Shown piece after piece: positions 27,001-36,000 of a stretch of DNA of 64,000 nt; the first letter of the stretch is position 1, and every line of letters starts with the position of its first letter. A program made the position numbers. The DNA comes from an uncultured cyanobacterium. Lineage in GTDB: Bacteria; Cyanobacteriota; Cyanobacteriia; Phormidesmidales; Phormidesmidaceae. The stretch lies in assembly GCA_963793265.1 (NCBI GenBank), contig CAWBZI010000006.1, positions 640,001-704,000 on the forward strand. The letters run 5' to 3'.

Positions 27001-30000
27001 AGATTATTCAGGGCGCTTTAGAGAATCAGGTGCGGGTGCCAGTGGCAAGTGCGCTGTCTGCTGCTGAGGTGCAAATTGCTATTCAACAGTCTTTTGTGGT
27101 TGGCTTGCAGGCAGCTTTGTGGGTGGCAGCGCTGGCTTTGTTTAGCGGGGCTGTGCTGGTTGGGATGCTCAGGCGATCGCAATTCGAGAAAATAAAATAG
27201 AAAATTCTTGCTATGAAACAAATTCGAGACGGTAAGGTTACAGTCCTCTGCGCAATGTGCCTGGCGCTGTTTATGACTAACTTCAACGCCACCGCAGCAG
27301 ATGTGGCCCTGCCTCAAATGCAACAGAACTTGGGCGCTGACATGCTTGGGGTGCAGTGGATTCTAAACGCATACCTTTTACCCGTTGCCAGCCTGCTATT
27401 GGTGACTGGCAAACTAGGCGATAGGTACGGTCGCAAGCGCATATTTTTAGCCGGTATTCTACTATTTAGCATCGCCACCGTAGTCTGTGGGCTCGCGCCT
27501 AACTTAGCCGTGCTGATTGTTGGACGCGGTTTGCAAGGCATCGGTGCAGCGGCGGTAATTCCTTTATCGCTCACGATTGTGACGGCGACCTTTAGTGACC
27601 ATCAGGCGCGGGCAAAAGCAATTGGGATATGGTCGGCAGTTTCAGCGATCGCACTTGTCGCGGGCCCCGGCTTAGGCGGCTTTTTGGTAGACGGCTTAGG
27701 CTGGCGCAGCATCTTTTTTATTACGCTTCCTTTAGGCTTAGTCACGTTTGCGATGACGGCTCGGGCCTTTAAAGAACAATTAAGAGAAAAAGCTGTGGTT
27801 AGCTGGGTTGGGTTGGGGTTGAGTGTGGTTGCGATCACCTCCCTTGTATACGTTCTCACCCAGGGCAGCATAGCAGCCTGGCAATCCACCCGAACCCTCG
27901 GCCTACTCACTATTACCGGCCTCAGCTTCACCGCCTTCTGGCAGGTCAACGCCCGCAGCAACACGCCCGTCATTCCACCAACTCTGCTTAGAAACAGAAA
28001 ATTCCTCACGCTCTGCTTCGTACAAACCTTGGTTTTCTTCACCTCTGGCGGATTGTTCTTCATTCTGAGCTTGTTCTTACAGCAGGTTCAAGGCTATTCC
28101 GCTGCCGCTACCGGCCTGTGCTTCATCCCGATGAACATCGCAATCGTTTCAGCCTCCTTCGCCTCCGGGTGGATTGCGGCCAAGCTAGGCTGGCGCTTCC
28201 CCATTCTCAGCGGCCTTACAATTGCGAGCATTGCACTATTCTCACTCACTCGCATCAGCATCAATACGCCCTACCTCACCACGCTATCGACCCTCATATT
28301 CTCAGGATTCGGCGGTGGCCTGACCATCGCCCCCCTCGCTGCTGCCGCGATGAATTCCGTACGTCCGGTAGAAGAAGGCATCGCCTCAGCCGTTTCGAGC
28401 ATCAGCATTCAATTTGGCGGCATTCTAGGCATTGGCTTACAGGGTGCGCTGTTCTCAGGCAGGCTCACCGCTGCGCTAAAAGACACAATGCTCGACTGGA
28501 ATTTATCGTCCGATCTCCAAGAGAAAATTTTAGCGGACGGCATCCAAAACCTGTCCAATTCCCCTGTTAATTTACCGCCCACCCTCTCTTCAGCAGCATT
28601 AGAACAAGCGGTCAAACTAGCGTTCGTCTCAGGGCTACAGTCCGTAGTACTCATAGCCGCGCTCTCACTGGTTTTCGGCGTACTACTCATATTTACCTTA
28701 GTTCCTTCAATCGTTCGGTCTTCTGTCCATGAACAAGTTTAACTTTGAGCCTCATCTCATCGACTCAGACCTACCCAAACGCCGCTTTTACGCTCAAACT
28801 GCCCTGGCCGACTTAGACAACGACGGCCGGTTAGAGGTAATTATGGGTCAGCGCCACGGCAACATTTACTACTACAAATATCACGACAACAAAACATGGT
28901 CGCGTCATCTGCTGGGCAAAAACTCACCGTCAGACGTCGGAGCCTGCGCCTTTGATGTAGACGGCGATGGCTGGATAGACTTTGTAGCGGGCGGGGCATG
29001 GTATCAAAACTCTCGCGATCCTAATAAGCCCTTTACGCGGCATGTGTTTGATCGGCGGCTCAAAGCTGTTCATGATTTAGTAGCGGCTGATATTGATGGA
29101 GACGGACAAAAAGAAGTGCTCACTATGTCTGATAAAAACAATTTGCGCTGGTACAAAGTGCCGGTTGATCCAACCCAACCTTGGATTCGGCATGATATTG
29201 CGACTTCTGTTCATGCTGGACTCAGCGTCGGAGATATTGACGGCGATGGCGATTTAGACATTGTGCGAACGGATATATGGCTTGAAAACATCAGAGGTGA
29301 CGGTACGCTTTGGGTAGAGCATCCTATTGGGCCAAGTACACCGCCGCCGAAAGACTTTCGTCCGTCGTATGCGTTTAATGCAACCTGTAGCGTGGTGTGC
29401 GATGTGAATAAAGACGGTAAGAACGACGTTGTTTTTACTGACTCAGAGATTCCGGGCGGGCAGGTGTGGTGGATGGAGAATGTGGATGGTAAGGGGCGCG
29501 AGTGGCGGCGGCATGAGATTTATTGCCGTGGGGATGAGCCTAGACGGGGGGCGTATCACAGCCTTTTTGTAGGCGATTTGGATGGCGATGGTGACTGGGA
29601 TGTTTTTAGCTGTGAGATGGAGGCGGTGAGCGGTGAGGAAGGGCCGCGTTTTTATATTTGGGAGAATGTGGATGGCTACGGGCAAGCGTGGAAGGAGCAC
29701 GTCATTTTAGATGTAAATTTGGGGGGACATGCAACTCTCGTGGGCGATATTTCGGGAAATGGGTGGCTAGATATGTTTACGAAGCCCTGGCGCGCGAGTC
29801 GGAAGAATGCGCTGGGGGGGAAGATGTATGCAATGTTTTTGGAGAATATTGGGTGGTAGCCTAAACCAACATTAAGAACAACTTAATCAGTAGCTGGGTT
29901 CGATCTAAAGGCTTACCTAAACAGGCAGAGGCACCATACCACTTTGCTTTGAGTCTTGTAAACCAGTTTGCCTTCGGCACCATCAGTAGAATAGGAACCG

Positions 30001-33000: not shown

Positions 33001-36000
33001 CAATTCTCTCTACCTCAGCTACGCCCTTAACAGACATCAGCGCCGGACTAATCGTGCGATCAACCAAATCACTGAGCGCTTCAACAGGTTGCGTCTCGGA
33101 GCGAACCGCGTAGGTAAGAATCGCGCCGTCGTCGTAGCGCAACTGCTGAATGGTCATGCTTTCAGCGTAGGGGGCTAAGTCCTCACGAATGCGGGCGATC
33201 GCATCGCGCACCCCGTCCATAATCTCATCGGTTTCGGCCCCCAAATCAAACCGCACCGCCGTGTAGGCATAGCCGTCACTCACCGACGAATAAATCTCAT
33301 CGACATCGCCTAGCCCGGCAACCGCGTCCTCTACTTTTTTAGTAAACTGCGTCTCTAGCTCCTGTGGCCCCGCACCCGCATAAGCGGTTTCAATTGTGAC
33401 AATCGGCAGGTCAATATTAGGGTTAGCATCAATACCGAGCTGCAAAAAAGAGACAATGCCCGCCAGCGTCAGCACCAAAAACAGCACCAGCGTCGGTACC
33501 GGATTCCGAATAGACCAGCCAGGAGCGGTAATACTCATGACTACTGCACCGCGTCTACAGTATCACCATCTTGTAAATAGCTAGCGCCACCGACGATAAT
33601 CTGACTGCCTGCACTTACACCAGAGAGTACTTCAACGGTTGGCTGCTCAGCTTTCGATGTCGTTGAACTAATTTGACTGGCCACCTCAACCGGATTCGCC
33701 TGCACTTTATTGTCGGAGCCGAGCGTATATACCAACGTTGTGCCGTCAGGCTGAGCGATCGCCGCTGCCGCCGGAATCACCACACTTCGCCGCCGCCCAG
33801 TCACCATCTCGGCCTGCAAAAACATCCCTGGCCGTAACTGACGCTCATCGTTAATCGAAACTCTCACCGTCGCCTGCCGACTGTCAGCATCTAAAGTCGG
33901 ATCTATCGTGCGAACGCTACCCTGCACCGTTAGTTCCGAATTCTGTTCAGGCGAGCGATCAGCCGCCGCGCTCATCACCACAGGCGCACCTACCTGAATC
34001 TGTTCGAGCTGCGCCTGCGATGGCTCCAAGGCTAGCTCCAACTGTCCGTTTTCGATCAGGCTATACAAAGGCGTCGAGGCTGAGGCCGTATCTCCGATGG
34101 TCATTAATCGTTCGGCAACAATGCCATCAGTAGGGGCCGTAACGACTGTTTGTGATCGCTGCGCCTGAATCTTATTAATCTCCGCTAGCCGACTAGCAAC
34201 ACTTGCCCGAGCGCTGTCAATATTAGCCGCTGCTACTGCCACATTCCCTTGAGCCGTCGCCGCCTCAATCTGGCGCGTACCAAGCTGTTCCTGGCTGACC
34301 GCACCCTCACGATACAGCGAACTGTAGCGACTCACGTCAACGCCTGCGGCCGCTTGTAGTACCTGGGCTTGGGCAAAGGCGACTTCCTGTTGTTCTAGTT
34401 CAGCTTGAGCCTGAGCAAGATTTGCTTCAGCTTGAGCAAGATCGGCCTGTAAAAGGCTGCTGTCTAGTATGGCGATTATCTGTCCGGTTTGGACGCGATC
34501 GCCCGCCCTCACCCTCATCTCTACAATCGGCAACCCGCTCACCGCAGGCGTCACCCGCAGCAAGTCCTTTGGCACCACAGTTCCCGTCAGCGACAGCGAA
34601 CTTTCAACTGTCGCAAGCTGAGCCGTTTGCAGCGTCACGCTTTGAGCAGGCGCGCGATCTGTTGCAGCAGTCAAAGCTGTATTAGAAGCTGTATCGACAT
34701 CTGCCTGTTCTGCCTGGTTTTCTTGCACCTGAGCCACCAAAAACCGTCCGCCGCCAAAAGCGAGCCAGGATACAGCTAATCCTAAGAAGAGACTTTTTGG
34801 CCCCCAAAGGAGACGAACTTGTGTGCCTATTCGACCAATTAGAGAAGGTTTGTGAATCGGCGTTCCTAATTGAGAGATGGGACGAAGCACTAGATTCTCG
34901 TCAAAGTCTTTTGAGGAATGTTTTGGGTGGCTCAAGGAAATAAAGCTCCTGACGAGAAGAATAGTTTTGTTTAGCGTAGGGGCCTAACCAACAAACTCGA
35001 ACGTATTCGTATCGAACAAGCTCAAATCTTCCTCATCTTTAATCACACCAACCAAATCGTTTTGATAGAAGATAGCAGTGCCGTCTTTAACCCCCTTCAC
35101 GTCCTGACCTAGAACGTAGTCACTAGCGCTACCCCGCAGGCGGATGCGATCGCCCTCTTTCGCTTTAAAGTCATCAACCAGGCCATAGTCACTATTGCCA
35201 CCGCCTAAATAGAACACATTATTCGCATCACCTAAAACAAACGTATCAGCACCCTTCTCACCCTTCAGCTTATCTTGCTCGCCTTGGCCAAATCCACTGC
35301 TCGTATCAACCCCAAAGAGCAAATCGTCGCCGTCATCGCCTTTAATCTCATCTGAGCCTAGCCCGCCAAATATGGTGTCGTTGCCTTTCGTGCCGTCTAC
35401 TTTCTCACTCTTGTCGCTGCCTTGAACGGTATTAGCGCTTCCAGGCGCGGCGGTTAAAGCCTGGCCTGGCGCTGTATTCCCTAACTCAGTTCTAAGCGCG
35501 TCAGTAAAAGAGCCCTCTCTATCAGGATCGAAGATAGACCCCAGGCCGCTAGCAACATTGCCCTGATCAAAAAAGCCAAGGCCCGTAGAAACGTTGTTAT
35601 CACCGCCAGGAAGCCTTTCGTCAGTGACAAAAGATCCGGTAATATCGGTTACCTGAATGTTGCCGCGCCCCGTTACAACCGGATCAACACCCTTCTGCTT
35701 ACCCACAAACTTTTCCAGCTTGCCCTTCTCACTATCCAAGCGTGCGACCCAGCCGTCAATCGATTCGCCCGCCTGCTTCTTACCGCCCAAAGAGCCCTCC
35801 GTAAAGCCCGTGACAATCACGCTGCCTCGATCGTCTACAGCCACGCCAGTTGCATAGTCGGCTTTCTCTTTTGCGCCCACCTGCTGAATCCACTGGTCGT
35901 TCAAATCACTGTCAAACTTAGCGACAAAAGCATTCGTATCACCGTTGCTAGCGCCCTTGCTGTCTTTGCCTTTCCCGCCCAGCTTGCCAATGGTATAGCC

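Follow-up and report, generated by a model that had tools for sequence, protein, structure and literature searches.

An RND permease with a C-terminal aspartate-less PatA-type receiver domain in Phormidesmidaceae cyanobacteria

In cyanobacterial PatA-type regulators, PATAN is the output domain to which the receiver is proposed to govern access, and orphan members such as PixE are described as non-phosphorylatable in the parts of the two sources available to us (bioRxiv 10.1101/2021.06.11.447907; PMC11181946). One orphan regulator has a known partner, the BLUF protein PixD. The isolated receiver of PixE bound none of the pilus proteins tested by yeast two-hybrid, as far as the accessible part of the study goes (bioRxiv 10.1101/2021.06.11.447907), so that receivers of the PatA-type family are not known to bind targets alone. 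The pseudo-receiver of FrzS is presented, in the excerpts available, as a protein-docking surface. On the transporter side, the lipid exporters MmpL3, MmpL11, and MmpL13 bear an extension that is linked to localisation, protein interactions, and phospho-regulation and that is rare in canonical RND proteins, according to the accessible part of PMC10171966. We found no publication that describes a fusion of an RND pump with a receiver; the words transporter, RND, and efflux are absent from the text of PMC12632262, and ACR_tran, PF00873, AcrB, and RND are absent from six supplementary files of PMC4395418, including its domain-architecture table.

The window, which is the whole 64,000-nucleotide stretch analysed here, harbors an open reading frame at 29861-33538 on the minus strand that starts with ATG, ends with the stop codon at 29861-29863, and encodes 1225 amino acids. 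Its parts are the following:

30521..33517, minus strand: RND permease body, residues 8-1006, 12-TM and AcrB/MdtB-like (Pfam ACR_tran), with intact proton-relay motifs
30227..30520, minus strand: cytoplasmic linker, residues 1007-1104, polar and weakly conserved
29864..30226, minus strand: Asp-less PatA-type pseudo-receiver, residues 1105-1225 (Pfam Response_reg, AF2 fold, trees)
30068..30070, minus strand: codon of Thr1157, the phospho-acceptor Asp position (alignments)

A preliminary description had reported a complete RND permease followed by a C-terminal receiver domain, which the Pfam matches bear out. ACR_tran spans residues 8-1006 at full length (E 9.6e-229, profile positions 4-1020 of 1021), and Response_reg spans residues 1109-1218 (E 1.2e-10, 41.9 bits against a cut-off of 30.2). 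The closest solved relative of the RND part is MdtB (9lyq_B, E 4.4e-124), with whose identical residues D406-D407 in TM4, K918 in TM10, and the motif 'RLRPILMT' align. In naming the proton-relay residues (the Asp-Asp of TM4, the Lys of TM10, the Arg motif of TM11), we follow the usage of the AcrB literature. Since the best NCBIfam scores, 740 bits for RND_permease_2 (cut-off 1250) and 485 bits for MdtB/MuxB (cut-off 1584), stay below threshold, the pump is classed as an RND permease outside any named NCBIfam subfamily. The genome contains eight further RND loci, one of which is split into three pieces, and none of its 49 receiver matches falls there, in agreement with the earlier statement that the eight other permeases lack the domain. 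Among the scanned genes of the window, none encodes an outer-membrane factor.

The fusion is real and under purifying selection. A word-index search with residues 1010-1225 reproduced the earlier result of 11 other clusters (1064-1291 aa), all with PF00873 and PF00072. Among the best 120 matches to the RND part, 13 other clusters are 69-80% identical and all carry PF00072; the other 106 lack it and reach at most 63% identity where at least 94% of the query is covered, and one PF00072-less match at 64% identity covers only 48% of the query. The C-terminal part could be imagined as a decaying accidental gene fusion or as an assembly or annotation artefact, for which its narrow distribution (11 of 173 family genomes) and a related MAG (L004) with the pump gene split in two frames might be cited. 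Such an origin is contradicted by an open frame in 20 distinct fused domain sequences from many assemblies, by a dN/dS of 0.05-0.15 (in the 12 of 36 pairs with unsaturated dS), and by 29 invariant columns in an 11-sequence alignment. It is further contradicted by contigs of four DNA runs from two studies, which cover 29700-31200 without an indel or a joint. Decay or artefact is thus hardly credible, and the earlier view of the fusion as a real, conserved architecture holds.

The AF2 model of the receiver takes on a (beta-alpha)5 fold in which five strands and five helices alternate (pLDDT 79.9), and Foldseek gives TM-scores of 0.87 to PleD and RR468 and of 0.84-0.91 over PleD, RR468, and DivK. 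In single-domain comparisons, the C-terminal receivers of PATAN proteins score 112-141 bits against 55 for PleD. Within the best 150 representatives, 12 matches consist of a single stretch, two of which belong to the fused clade (one a fragment), and the remaining 10 have a C-terminal receiver, accompanied by DUF4388/PATAN in six. Within the genome of the pump, its PATAN regulator comes second at 106.6 bits, against 76 for the next match. In phylogenetic trees, the fused and the PATAN-linked Asp-less domains fall together in a single clade (100/93, SH-aLRT 98, 100/98) that joins PatA-type receivers against other receivers (99/97, SH-aLRT 98). Monophyly of the fused domains has good support only in the smaller tree (96/93); it reaches 62 in a second and is not recovered in a third. 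On these scores and trees, the domain is a PatA-type receiver whose sister group, likewise Asp-less, sits on a PATAN domain; it was not invented on the pump but stems from the PatA-type receivers, a family that serves cyanobacterial PATAN regulators as input domains. No DUF4388 match was obtained in the pump protein at E values up to 0.01, so by its domain content the pump is not a PatA-type regulator, and only that family's receiver is present.

The distribution of the two forms was surveyed in 173 family genomes (46 of genus g1, 5 of g16, 22 of g11, and 100 of 16 other genera). The fused pump occurs in 9/46 genomes of g1 and 2/5 of g16, and the PATAN-linked Asp-less form in all 22 genomes of the sister genus g11. 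Neither form was found in the 100 genomes of the 16 other genera, and none of the 173 genomes has both. The PATAN-linked sister gene has no RND gene beside it; an ancestral link between receiver and pump is therefore not visible, and the direction in which the domain would have moved rests on the parsimony of the architectures.

Thr1157 takes the place of the phospho-acceptor Asp, as had been noted previously, both in the profile alignment to solved structures ('PDIILLD' of PleD) and in the alignment to PatA-type receivers ('PDLILLD'). None of the 40 distinct domains of the Asp-less clade has Asp at this position, which is filled by Thr (15), Ser (2), or Ala (3) in the 20 fused domains and by Thr (19) or Ser (1) in the 20 PATAN-linked ones. 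The reported Lys-Pro pair is retained as K1209-P1210 (Lys in 18/20 and Pro in 19/20 distinct fused domains). The acidic pair was also said to be kept, which is true of the pump itself with E1113-D1114 (beta1 ends at I1112 in the model) but not of its clade, where Asn or Ser takes the place of the second acid in 14/20 fused and Ser in 20/20 PATAN-linked distinct domains. D1115, to which the preliminary description had pointed, is invariant but lies one position past the canonical pair. Val1187 occupies the Thr/Ser position that closes beta4 (S7 A5 V5 T2 D1 in the fused clade), and Cys1206 the aromatic switch position on beta5 (C16 H2 Y2). D1115, T1129, R1213, T1214, and F1221 are invariant across both Asp-less groups; at D1115, R1213, and T1214 the domain of the pump differs from canonical PatA-type receivers. 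The active site is hence more degenerate than first described, with the second acid and the Thr/Ser usually absent in the clade. Judged from its sequence, the domain cannot act as a normal His-Asp phospho-acceptor, and ordinary His-Asp phosphotransfer is ruled out because the active site is degenerate. The domain falls under the definition of a pseudo-receiver or aspartate-less receiver given in the accessible part of PMC12632262.

The residue at the old Asp site could instead be phosphorylated by a Hanks-type Ser/Thr kinase, with a phospho-Thr, putatively held by Lys1209 and the clade-specific Arg1213, that mimics phospho-Asp and toggles the domain. A hydroxyl residue is indeed found in 17/20 fused and 20/20 PATAN-linked distinct domains, the Lys is present in 38/40, and D1115, R1213, and T1214, invariant in both Asp-less groups, differ from canonical PatA-type receivers. 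Ser, Thr, and Tyr jointly account for 12% of the substitutions at this site in receivers according to the available part of PMC4395418, which speculates on such phosphorylation and states that no case is known, and MmpL3, a member of the RND superfamily, has a C-terminal domain under regulation by Ser/Thr kinases (PMC10171966, seen in part). The Ala in 3/20 fused domains shows the hydroxyl to be dispensable in some lineages, and no kinase, phosphatase, or FHA gene occurs among the scanned genes of the window or the related loci, so that we regard this switch as unlikely.

The linker between permease and receiver was measured at ~98 aa (1007-1104) rather than the ~90 aa given before. In 14 full-length fused proteins it varies from 48 to 140 aa with a polar/small residue fraction of 0.69-0.82, and it is not alignable save for a short (A/S/V)YA motif in 8/12. 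The chain of unfused relatives ends 25-40 aa past TM12. A linker this long, variable, and unconserved counts against rigid allosteric coupling, and simple tethering is the minimal reading.

Upstream of the pump, the following genes share its strand:

33541..34935, minus strand: periplasmic adaptor of 464 aa, a membrane fusion protein (HlyD_D23, HlyD_3; TIGR01730 RND_mfp at 174 bits, cut-off 94.9)
34984..37659, minus strand: SBBP beta-propeller/RTX-repeat protein, 891 aa (Pfam SBBP, HemolysinCabind)
38089..40592, minus strand: membrane protein of 330 aa that matches no Pfam family, together with an MFS transporter (MFS_1)
40565..56436, minus strand: co-directional biosynthetic genes (Pfam scans)

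The adaptor gene ends 2 nt before the start codon of the pump, which agrees with the operon with an HlyD-type adaptor proposed earlier, and an adaptor lies directly upstream of the pump in 7/7 loci with an upstream flank. Its N-terminus consists of a cytoplasmic tail of ~45 aa and a TM anchor; according to the accessible part of PMC8277102, this arrangement is typical of ABC-, MFS-, and T1SS-associated adaptors, whereas the adaptor here is paired with an RND pump. The SBBP/RTX gene directly precedes the adaptor in the window and in loci L001, L002, L003, L005, and L008. It does not do so in L006 (the other genus), where an AMP-binding/DIP2-like gene takes this position. Orthologues of the SBBP/RTX protein at 59% identity or more are present in 12 of the 173 family genomes, namely all 11 with the fused pump and G163. 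The 330-aa protein shares 69-77% identity with the genes in the same place in L001 and L002; the pair with the MFS transporter is also found upstream in L001, a ~300-aa protein in L002, and an MFS gene in L003 and L005. The biosynthetic genes encode a fatty-acyl-AMP-ligase-like protein, a ketosynthase, a TubC-docking protein, two SDRs, a GMC oxidoreductase, a UDP-galactopyranose mutase, and two GT28/MGDG-synthase-like transferases. By this gene content, the pump forms the end of a 15-gene lipid/polyketide-glycoside cluster. The preliminary description had missed this larger biosynthetic/export cluster, as well as the PatA-type family membership with its PATAN kin and the degenerate site.

The kinship to motility regulators raises the thought that the membrane-tethered domain is a decoy, which would have kept the surface through which PatA-type receivers contact their chemosensory kinase or PATAN domain and would titrate that partner at the pump, such that pump abundance feeds into motility signalling and not the reverse. 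The domain clearly belongs to the PatA-type family, and the genome encodes at least one bona fide PATAN regulator, with a CheY-like gene after it, plus two or three further PatA-like receivers. The differences from canonical PatA-type receivers are nevertheless scattered across the domain and reach into the alpha1 region, through which receivers meet kinases, and neither the window nor the related loci link the pump operon to chemosensory genes, which makes a decoy distinctly improbable.

With a probability of roughly 0.5, the protein is a functional exporter to which an input or docking module, independent of His-Asp phosphorylation, is tethered, by a mechanism that we infer. A working pump is supported by the full-length ACR_tran match, the proton-relay motifs kept relative to MdtB, and the adjoining adaptor. 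The proton-driven RND exporter would be co-transcribed with its membrane-anchored adaptor at the end of the lipid/polyketide-glycoside cluster, and beyond its last TM helix, 48-140 residues would form a flexible cytoplasmic tether to the Asp-less receiver. As in the orphan non-phosphorylatable PatA-type regulators, the domain may act as a tethered protein-protein module, which would mask and unmask, or dock something onto, either the pump trimer at its cytoplasmic face or the adaptor at its cytoplasmic tail. Export or pump placement would then be set by a cytoplasmic partner or state and not by a kinase. The Asp-less motility-regulator domain on the pump tail thus hints at an undescribed way to control or position such pumps. 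The analysis turned up no partner and no effect on transport, and the gene is present in no RNA run. A PixD-type partner is not available, as BLUF is found in 0/11 genomes with the fused pump (4/173 family genomes overall). The domain had been called a phosphorylation-independent regulatory or docking domain; the first part stands as far as ordinary His-Asp phosphotransfer goes, with the loss of Asp from all 40 domains, and the regulatory or docking role stays conditional, being argued from architecture and conservation.

A signal-free role is also possible, if doubtful: the domain could cluster or place pump trimers by constitutive self-association or localisation, much as the C-terminal domain of MmpL3 directs polar localisation (PMC10171966, seen in part). 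Trp1200, found in 17/20 fused domains where the PATAN-linked ones have L/M/F, is situated on the alpha4-beta5 side, by which receivers usually dimerise, and a trimer would hold three copies close by on flexible tethers. Most PatA-type regulators self-interact by yeast two-hybrid, but membrane localisation in these proteins belongs to PATAN and not to the receiver, as reported in the accessible part of bioRxiv 10.1101/2021.06.11.447907.

The pump shares the full-length ACR_tran body, the proton-relay motifs, and the adjoining adaptor gene with tripartite HAE-1-type RND pumps (AcrB, MexB, MdtB/MdtC). Canonical RND permeases stop shortly after TM12, whereas ~220 cytoplasmic residues with a folded receiver-like domain are added here, and the pump stays under the cut-off of every named NCBIfam RND subfamily. 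With the PatA-type regulators (PatA, PixG, PixE, LsiR), it has the receiver subfamily in common and its C-terminal place behind a long low-complexity linker, and the orphan members PixE and LsiR are judged non-phosphorylatable in the sources as far as available, as is the domain of the pump. Those regulators carry PATAN/DUF4388, the place of which is taken by the RND pump, and the exchange of Asp for Thr, Ser, or Ala throughout the Asp-less clade is unlike canonical PatA-type receivers. Pseudo-receivers such as FrzS and RitR are likewise recognised as receivers by profile and fold while lacking the Asp and further catalytic residues (PMC12632262 and PMC4395418, both in part); known Asp-less receivers sit on DNA-binding, coiled-coil, or enzymatic outputs, in contrast to the RND pump here. 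A cytoplasmic C-terminal extension on an RND-superfamily protein is shared with MmpL3, MmpL11, and MmpL13 (PMC10171966, in part). The extension of MmpL3 is predicted to be disordered and has no receiver fold, in contrast to that of the pump, and MmpL proteins form another RND branch that works without an adaptor or outer-membrane channel, whereas an adaptor gene adjoins the pump described here.

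The pump protein of the window, P0001, is an RND permease followed by a linker (residues 1007-1104) and a C-terminal pseudo-receiver (1105-1225). Pfam places a full-length ACR_tran match at residues 8-1006 (E 9.6e-229) and a Response_reg match at 1109-1218 (E 1.2e-10, 41.9 bits against a cut-off of 30.2). The permease part is of the ordinary HAE-1-like kind and comes closest to RND_permease_2 and MdtB/MuxB among the NCBIfam models, both below their cut-offs, and MdtB is its best solved relative (E 4.4e-124). The TM4 Asp-Asp pair, the TM10 lysine, and the RLRPILMT motif are all kept in the alignment with MdtB, and the proton relay of P0001 therefore looks intact. 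The operon includes the following genes:

29861-33538, minus strand: fused pump gene, an ORF of 1225 residues
33541-34935, minus strand: periplasmic adaptor gene, TIGR01730 above cut-off, ending 2 nt before the pump start codon

The preliminary description had proposed this architecture, with the adaptor in the same operon and the domain missing from the other RND permeases. Pfam, fold, and alignments confirm an RND permease with a C-terminal aspartate-less receiver, the 2-nt spacing and the TIGR01730 match fit the proposed operon, and the domain is absent from all eight other RND loci of the genome. The earlier search, which had found 11 other clusters of 1064-1291 aa that all combine PF00873 and PF00072, was reproduced exactly. 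The adaptor starts with a cytoplasmic tail of ~45 aa that precedes a TM anchor (34800-34935, minus strand). A semi-conserved "PRHRxS..G" motif occurs in five of the seven fused-pump-operon adaptors whose N-terminus is covered, with PIHKPS as the variant in the window. That this tail is a dedicated partner of the pseudo-receiver was considered and rejected for lack of specificity, because the adaptor belonging to the closest unfused paralogue (C7:54429-55835) carries a tail that is similar in part.

When only the RND part served as query, PF00072 was present in all 13 closest other clusters (69-80% identical) and absent from the remaining 106 of the best 120 of 6621 relatives, which are at most 63% identical where query coverage is at least 94% (one match at 64% identity covers only 48%). 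The fused pumps therefore form one tight group. Unfused relatives stop 25-40 residues past TM12. The stretch 29700-31200 is free of indels and joints in contigs from four DNA runs of two studies, and one of these four runs may be the window's own source; no RNA runs containing this stretch were found. The fused pump gene of one related MAG (L004:1352-5154) is broken into frames of 376 and 876 aa, by a frameshift or by an error of the assembly. That the C-terminal part is a decaying remnant is contradicted by the selection data, since those 12 of 36 pairs that have unsaturated dS give a dN/dS of 0.05-0.15 for the domain. The saturated pairs show pS >0.75 and pN of 0.22-0.32. The linker varies between 48 and 140 residues across the fused proteins and is 69-82% polar or small. 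An (A/S/V)YA motif ("LAYAYG" in P0001; 30400-30450, minus strand, residues ~1030-1046) lies ~25-45 residues past TM12 in eight of 12 fused proteins, surrounded by unalignable linker, and may be a linear docking motif.

The fused domains are 60-74% identical to the window copy and share 29 invariant columns in an alignment of 11 domains (A1). AlphaFold2 on this alignment predicts a regular (beta-alpha)5 fold (pLDDT 79.9), and Foldseek gives TM 0.84-0.91 between the model and receivers that include PleD, RR468, and DivK. The profile alignment puts Thr1157 on the phospho-acceptor Asp53 of PleD and Lys1209 on the conserved lysine. A related domain is attached to PATAN (DUF4388) in other proteins, and residues were counted in both forms.

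Active-site residues in every reachable copy (20 distinct fused and 20 distinct PATAN-linked domains); positions are those of P0001
Phospho-acceptor site, T1157: fused T15 S2 A3; PATAN-linked T19 S1
First acid, E1113: fused E or D, 20/20; PATAN-linked D, 20/20
Second acid, D1114: fused N12 D6 S2; PATAN-linked S20
Thr/Ser at end of beta4, V1187: fused S7 A5 V5 T2 D1; PATAN-linked A17 S2 T1
Aromatic switch, C1206: fused C16 H2 Y2; PATAN-linked Y17 F3
Conserved Lys, K1209: fused K18 T1 Q1; PATAN-linked K20

Lacking an aspartate at the phospho-acceptor site and degenerate at further positions, the domain is an aspartate-less pseudo-receiver by the definitions in the accessible part of PMC12632262. 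The replacement of the aspartate by Thr1157 and the retained lysine stand as first described. The acidic pair had been misplaced, as the invariant D1115 assigned to it lies one position past E1113-D1114, and the 20-domain counts show a more degenerate site than had been proposed. In a rival reading, a Ser/Thr kinase would phosphorylate the Thr/Ser at the former aspartate site, as the accessible part of PMC4395418 raises in general terms for aspartate-less receivers; alanine occupies this site in three of the 20 fused domains, which weakens the proposal. A two-copy complex prediction of the domain lent self-association no support (0.02 against a mark of 0.42), a result that speaks neither for nor against binding.

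The closest relatives of the domain are receivers of PatA-type regulators, which combine PATAN with a C-terminal receiver (PatA, PixG, PixE, LsiR). A search of 1.84 billion representatives with the domain profile yielded 216,807 matches, of which the best 150 were looked at. These are dominated by multi-receiver proteins (134 of 150), whose scores add up; the five that were scanned are all hybrid kinases. A single matched stretch is found in 12 of the 150, two belonging to the fused clade (one a fragment). The ten others are proteins of 224-556 aa with a C-terminal receiver that scores 112-141 bits, compared to 55 for the best PleD domain, and six of them carry DUF4388. The second-best match in the window's own genome is likewise a 345-aa PATAN-receiver gene (106.6 bits, next 76) that is followed by a CheY-like gene. 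In P0030, a PATAN protein, the receiver also has threonine at the aspartate site.

The fused and PATAN-linked aspartate-less domains form one clade in three trees (100/93, SH-aLRT 98, 100/98), and the loss of the aspartate therefore predates the split of the two architectures. This clade joins the PatA-type receivers against the genome's other receivers (99/97; 98). Monophyly of the fused domains themselves is supported at 96/93 in a smaller tree, and at 62 or not recovered in larger ones. The trees give no direction for the domain move; a transfer from PATAN to the pump is suggested because all other family members are PATAN-linked. The pump tail is not a PatA-type regulator, as it comes without PATAN, while its receiver belongs to that subfamily. 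A search of shorter proteins for a stand-alone pseudo-receiver found none; it yielded the PATAN-linked P0275, a 96-aa fragment from a contig of 764 bp, and nothing else.

Occurrence of the two forms in the 173 genomes of the order, one family throughout
g1, the window's genus: fused to RND, 9/46 genomes
g16: fused to RND, 2/5 genomes
g11: PATAN-linked, 22/22 genomes
16 other genera: neither form, 0/100 genomes

No case of both forms in one genome was found among the 173. In locus L028, the PATAN-linked gene is flanked by genes for a K+ channel and a polyphosphate kinase, an order that L027 and L029-L031 resemble as judged from ORF sizes alone. A tie of this sister gene to an RND operon was rejected, with no RND gene near it in L028. 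An ordinary receiver probably accounts for a weak match to the domain profile in a Vampirovibrio MAG (L009:10001-10099, 48% over 40 residues, E 7e-4).

The pump gene ends a co-directional 15-gene run (56436 to 29861) that is closed by the MFS, 330-aa, SBBP/RTX, adaptor, and pump genes:

40565-56436, minus strand: biosynthetic genes (Pfam), start of the run
within 40565-56436, minus strand: AMP-binding/DIP2-like, fatty-acyl-AMP-ligase-like gene
within 40565-56436, minus strand: ketosynthase
within 40565-56436, minus strand: TubC-docking protein
within 40565-56436, minus strand: two short-chain dehydrogenases
within 40565-56436, minus strand: GMC oxidoreductase
within 40565-56436, minus strand: UDP-galactopyranose mutase
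within 40565-56436, minus strand: two GT28/MGDG-synthase-like transferases
within the 15-gene run, minus strand: 468-aa gene, no Pfam family
38089-39081, minus strand: predicted membrane protein of 330 aa, without Pfam matches up to E 5

The nearest upstream neighbor of the adaptor gene encodes a ~900-aa protein with an SBBP beta-propeller and RTX repeats, both in the window and at five of six other loci with the flank covered. Orthologues of this protein (identity of 59% or more) are present in 12 of the 173 genomes, namely all 11 fused-pump genomes and one fragmented g16 genome; the g16 gene is on a different contig from the pump, and in g16 an AMP-binding/DIP2-like gene is immediately upstream of the adaptor. 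Further upstream, the MFS transporter gene sits beside the 330-aa protein, which at 69-77% identity to the same-place genes of the fused-pump loci L001 and L002 is better conserved than its neighbors. Converging plus-strand genes at 20243-29859 encode a GT28-like protein, a DegT aminotransferase, two MFS transporters, an FG-GAP protein, and an 876-aa fusion protein in which a GT28-like part is joined to an FAD/ALO oxidase. Together with the minus-strand genes at 40565-56436, they look like one biosynthetic island around the pump operon. The lipid, polyketide, and glycosyl genes make a cluster-made lipid or polyketide glycoside the likely cargo, for which the dedicated exporters of heterocyst glycolipids offer a comparison. 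At two other loci (L005:10424-13580, L006:12553-15261), the fused pump is closely followed downstream by exporter genes of the ABC/FtsX type (DevCA- or MacB-like), which fits with a lipid-export neighborhood. Beyond the run, the window holds a 416-aa protein consisting nearly entirely of RTX nonapeptide repeats (10 stretches; 56595-57845, minus strand) and a 716-aa NACHT/STAND NTPase (61113-63263, minus strand).

In PatA-type regulators, according to the accessible parts of two reports (bioRxiv 10.1101/2021.06.11.447907, PMC11181946), the receiver serves as input and PATAN as output, the latter being localized to the membrane with PilB1 and PilC as binding partners. Phosphorylation of the PixG receiver is proposed there to render PATAN accessible, and orphan members, PixE among them, cannot be phosphorylated and are controlled via protein binding. 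By analogy, the pump pseudo-receiver is best read as a tethered module that works without a kinase. Its target would be the pump or the cytoplasmic tail of the adaptor, where it would mask or unmask a surface or serve as a dock. The earlier interpretation is partly supported: the fusion is real and selected and its site lacks the aspartate, and a regulatory or docking role would follow by this analogy. A simple transfer of the PatA-type model is weighed against by the unconserved linker, by the isolated PixE receiver, which bound none of the tested pilus proteins (accessible part of bioRxiv 10.1101/2021.06.11.447907), and by the absence of BLUF proteins from the fused-pump genomes. A PixD-like BLUF protein as general partner was rejected, as PF04940 occurs in four of 173 genomes, including none of the 11 fused-pump and two of the 22 PATAN-linked genomes.

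Another rival reading is that the domain is a membrane-tethered decoy for motility signaling. It may also be a constitutive clustering or localization handle, for which the accessible part of PMC10171966 provides a parallel in MmpL3. PATAN is the output domain that engages the type IV pilus motor of model cyanobacteria. We give a probability of roughly one in four to the reading that a non-phosphorylation input module, which controls PATAN in one genus, was transplanted onto the RND exporter of a glycolipid/polyketide-glycoside cluster.

Full-text searching found no description of an RND-receiver fusion, nor did the pseudo-receiver review PMC12632262, the supplementary files of PMC4395418 (architecture table included), or the accessible part of the tripartite-pump review PMC8277102. 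Unrelated fusions outside the clade were not found among the 12 single-stretch matches of the best 150 or the best 120 of 6621 RND relatives. A whole-protein ESM Atlas search was uninformative, as its matches were all plain RND clusters (score 0.76) and none combined the two families. Within the literature and searches covered, the receiver-type C-terminal addition to an RND permease appears to be new. The accessible part of the 2025 review PMC12632262 terms the switching of bacterial pseudo-receivers a mystery. In sister genera, the same aspartate-less receiver is joined to PATAN or to an RND pump, outputs unrelated to each other, and keeps the same invariant residues; this offers a clean comparative system for finding the input. 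If the transplant took place, this natural domain swap could show what orphan PatA-type pseudo-receivers sense, and P0001 would be the first case, within the searches made, of an RND permease that has post-translational gating of the receiver type built into it. The finding also links an uncharacterized lipid/polyketide-glycoside cluster to a dedicated exporter.

The control of RND pumps is usually described as transcriptional, with two-component systems that act on promoters. Two-component regulation of pumps is introduced in the accessible part of PMC8277102. A folded signaling domain wired to the permease would constitute a separate, post-translational layer of control.
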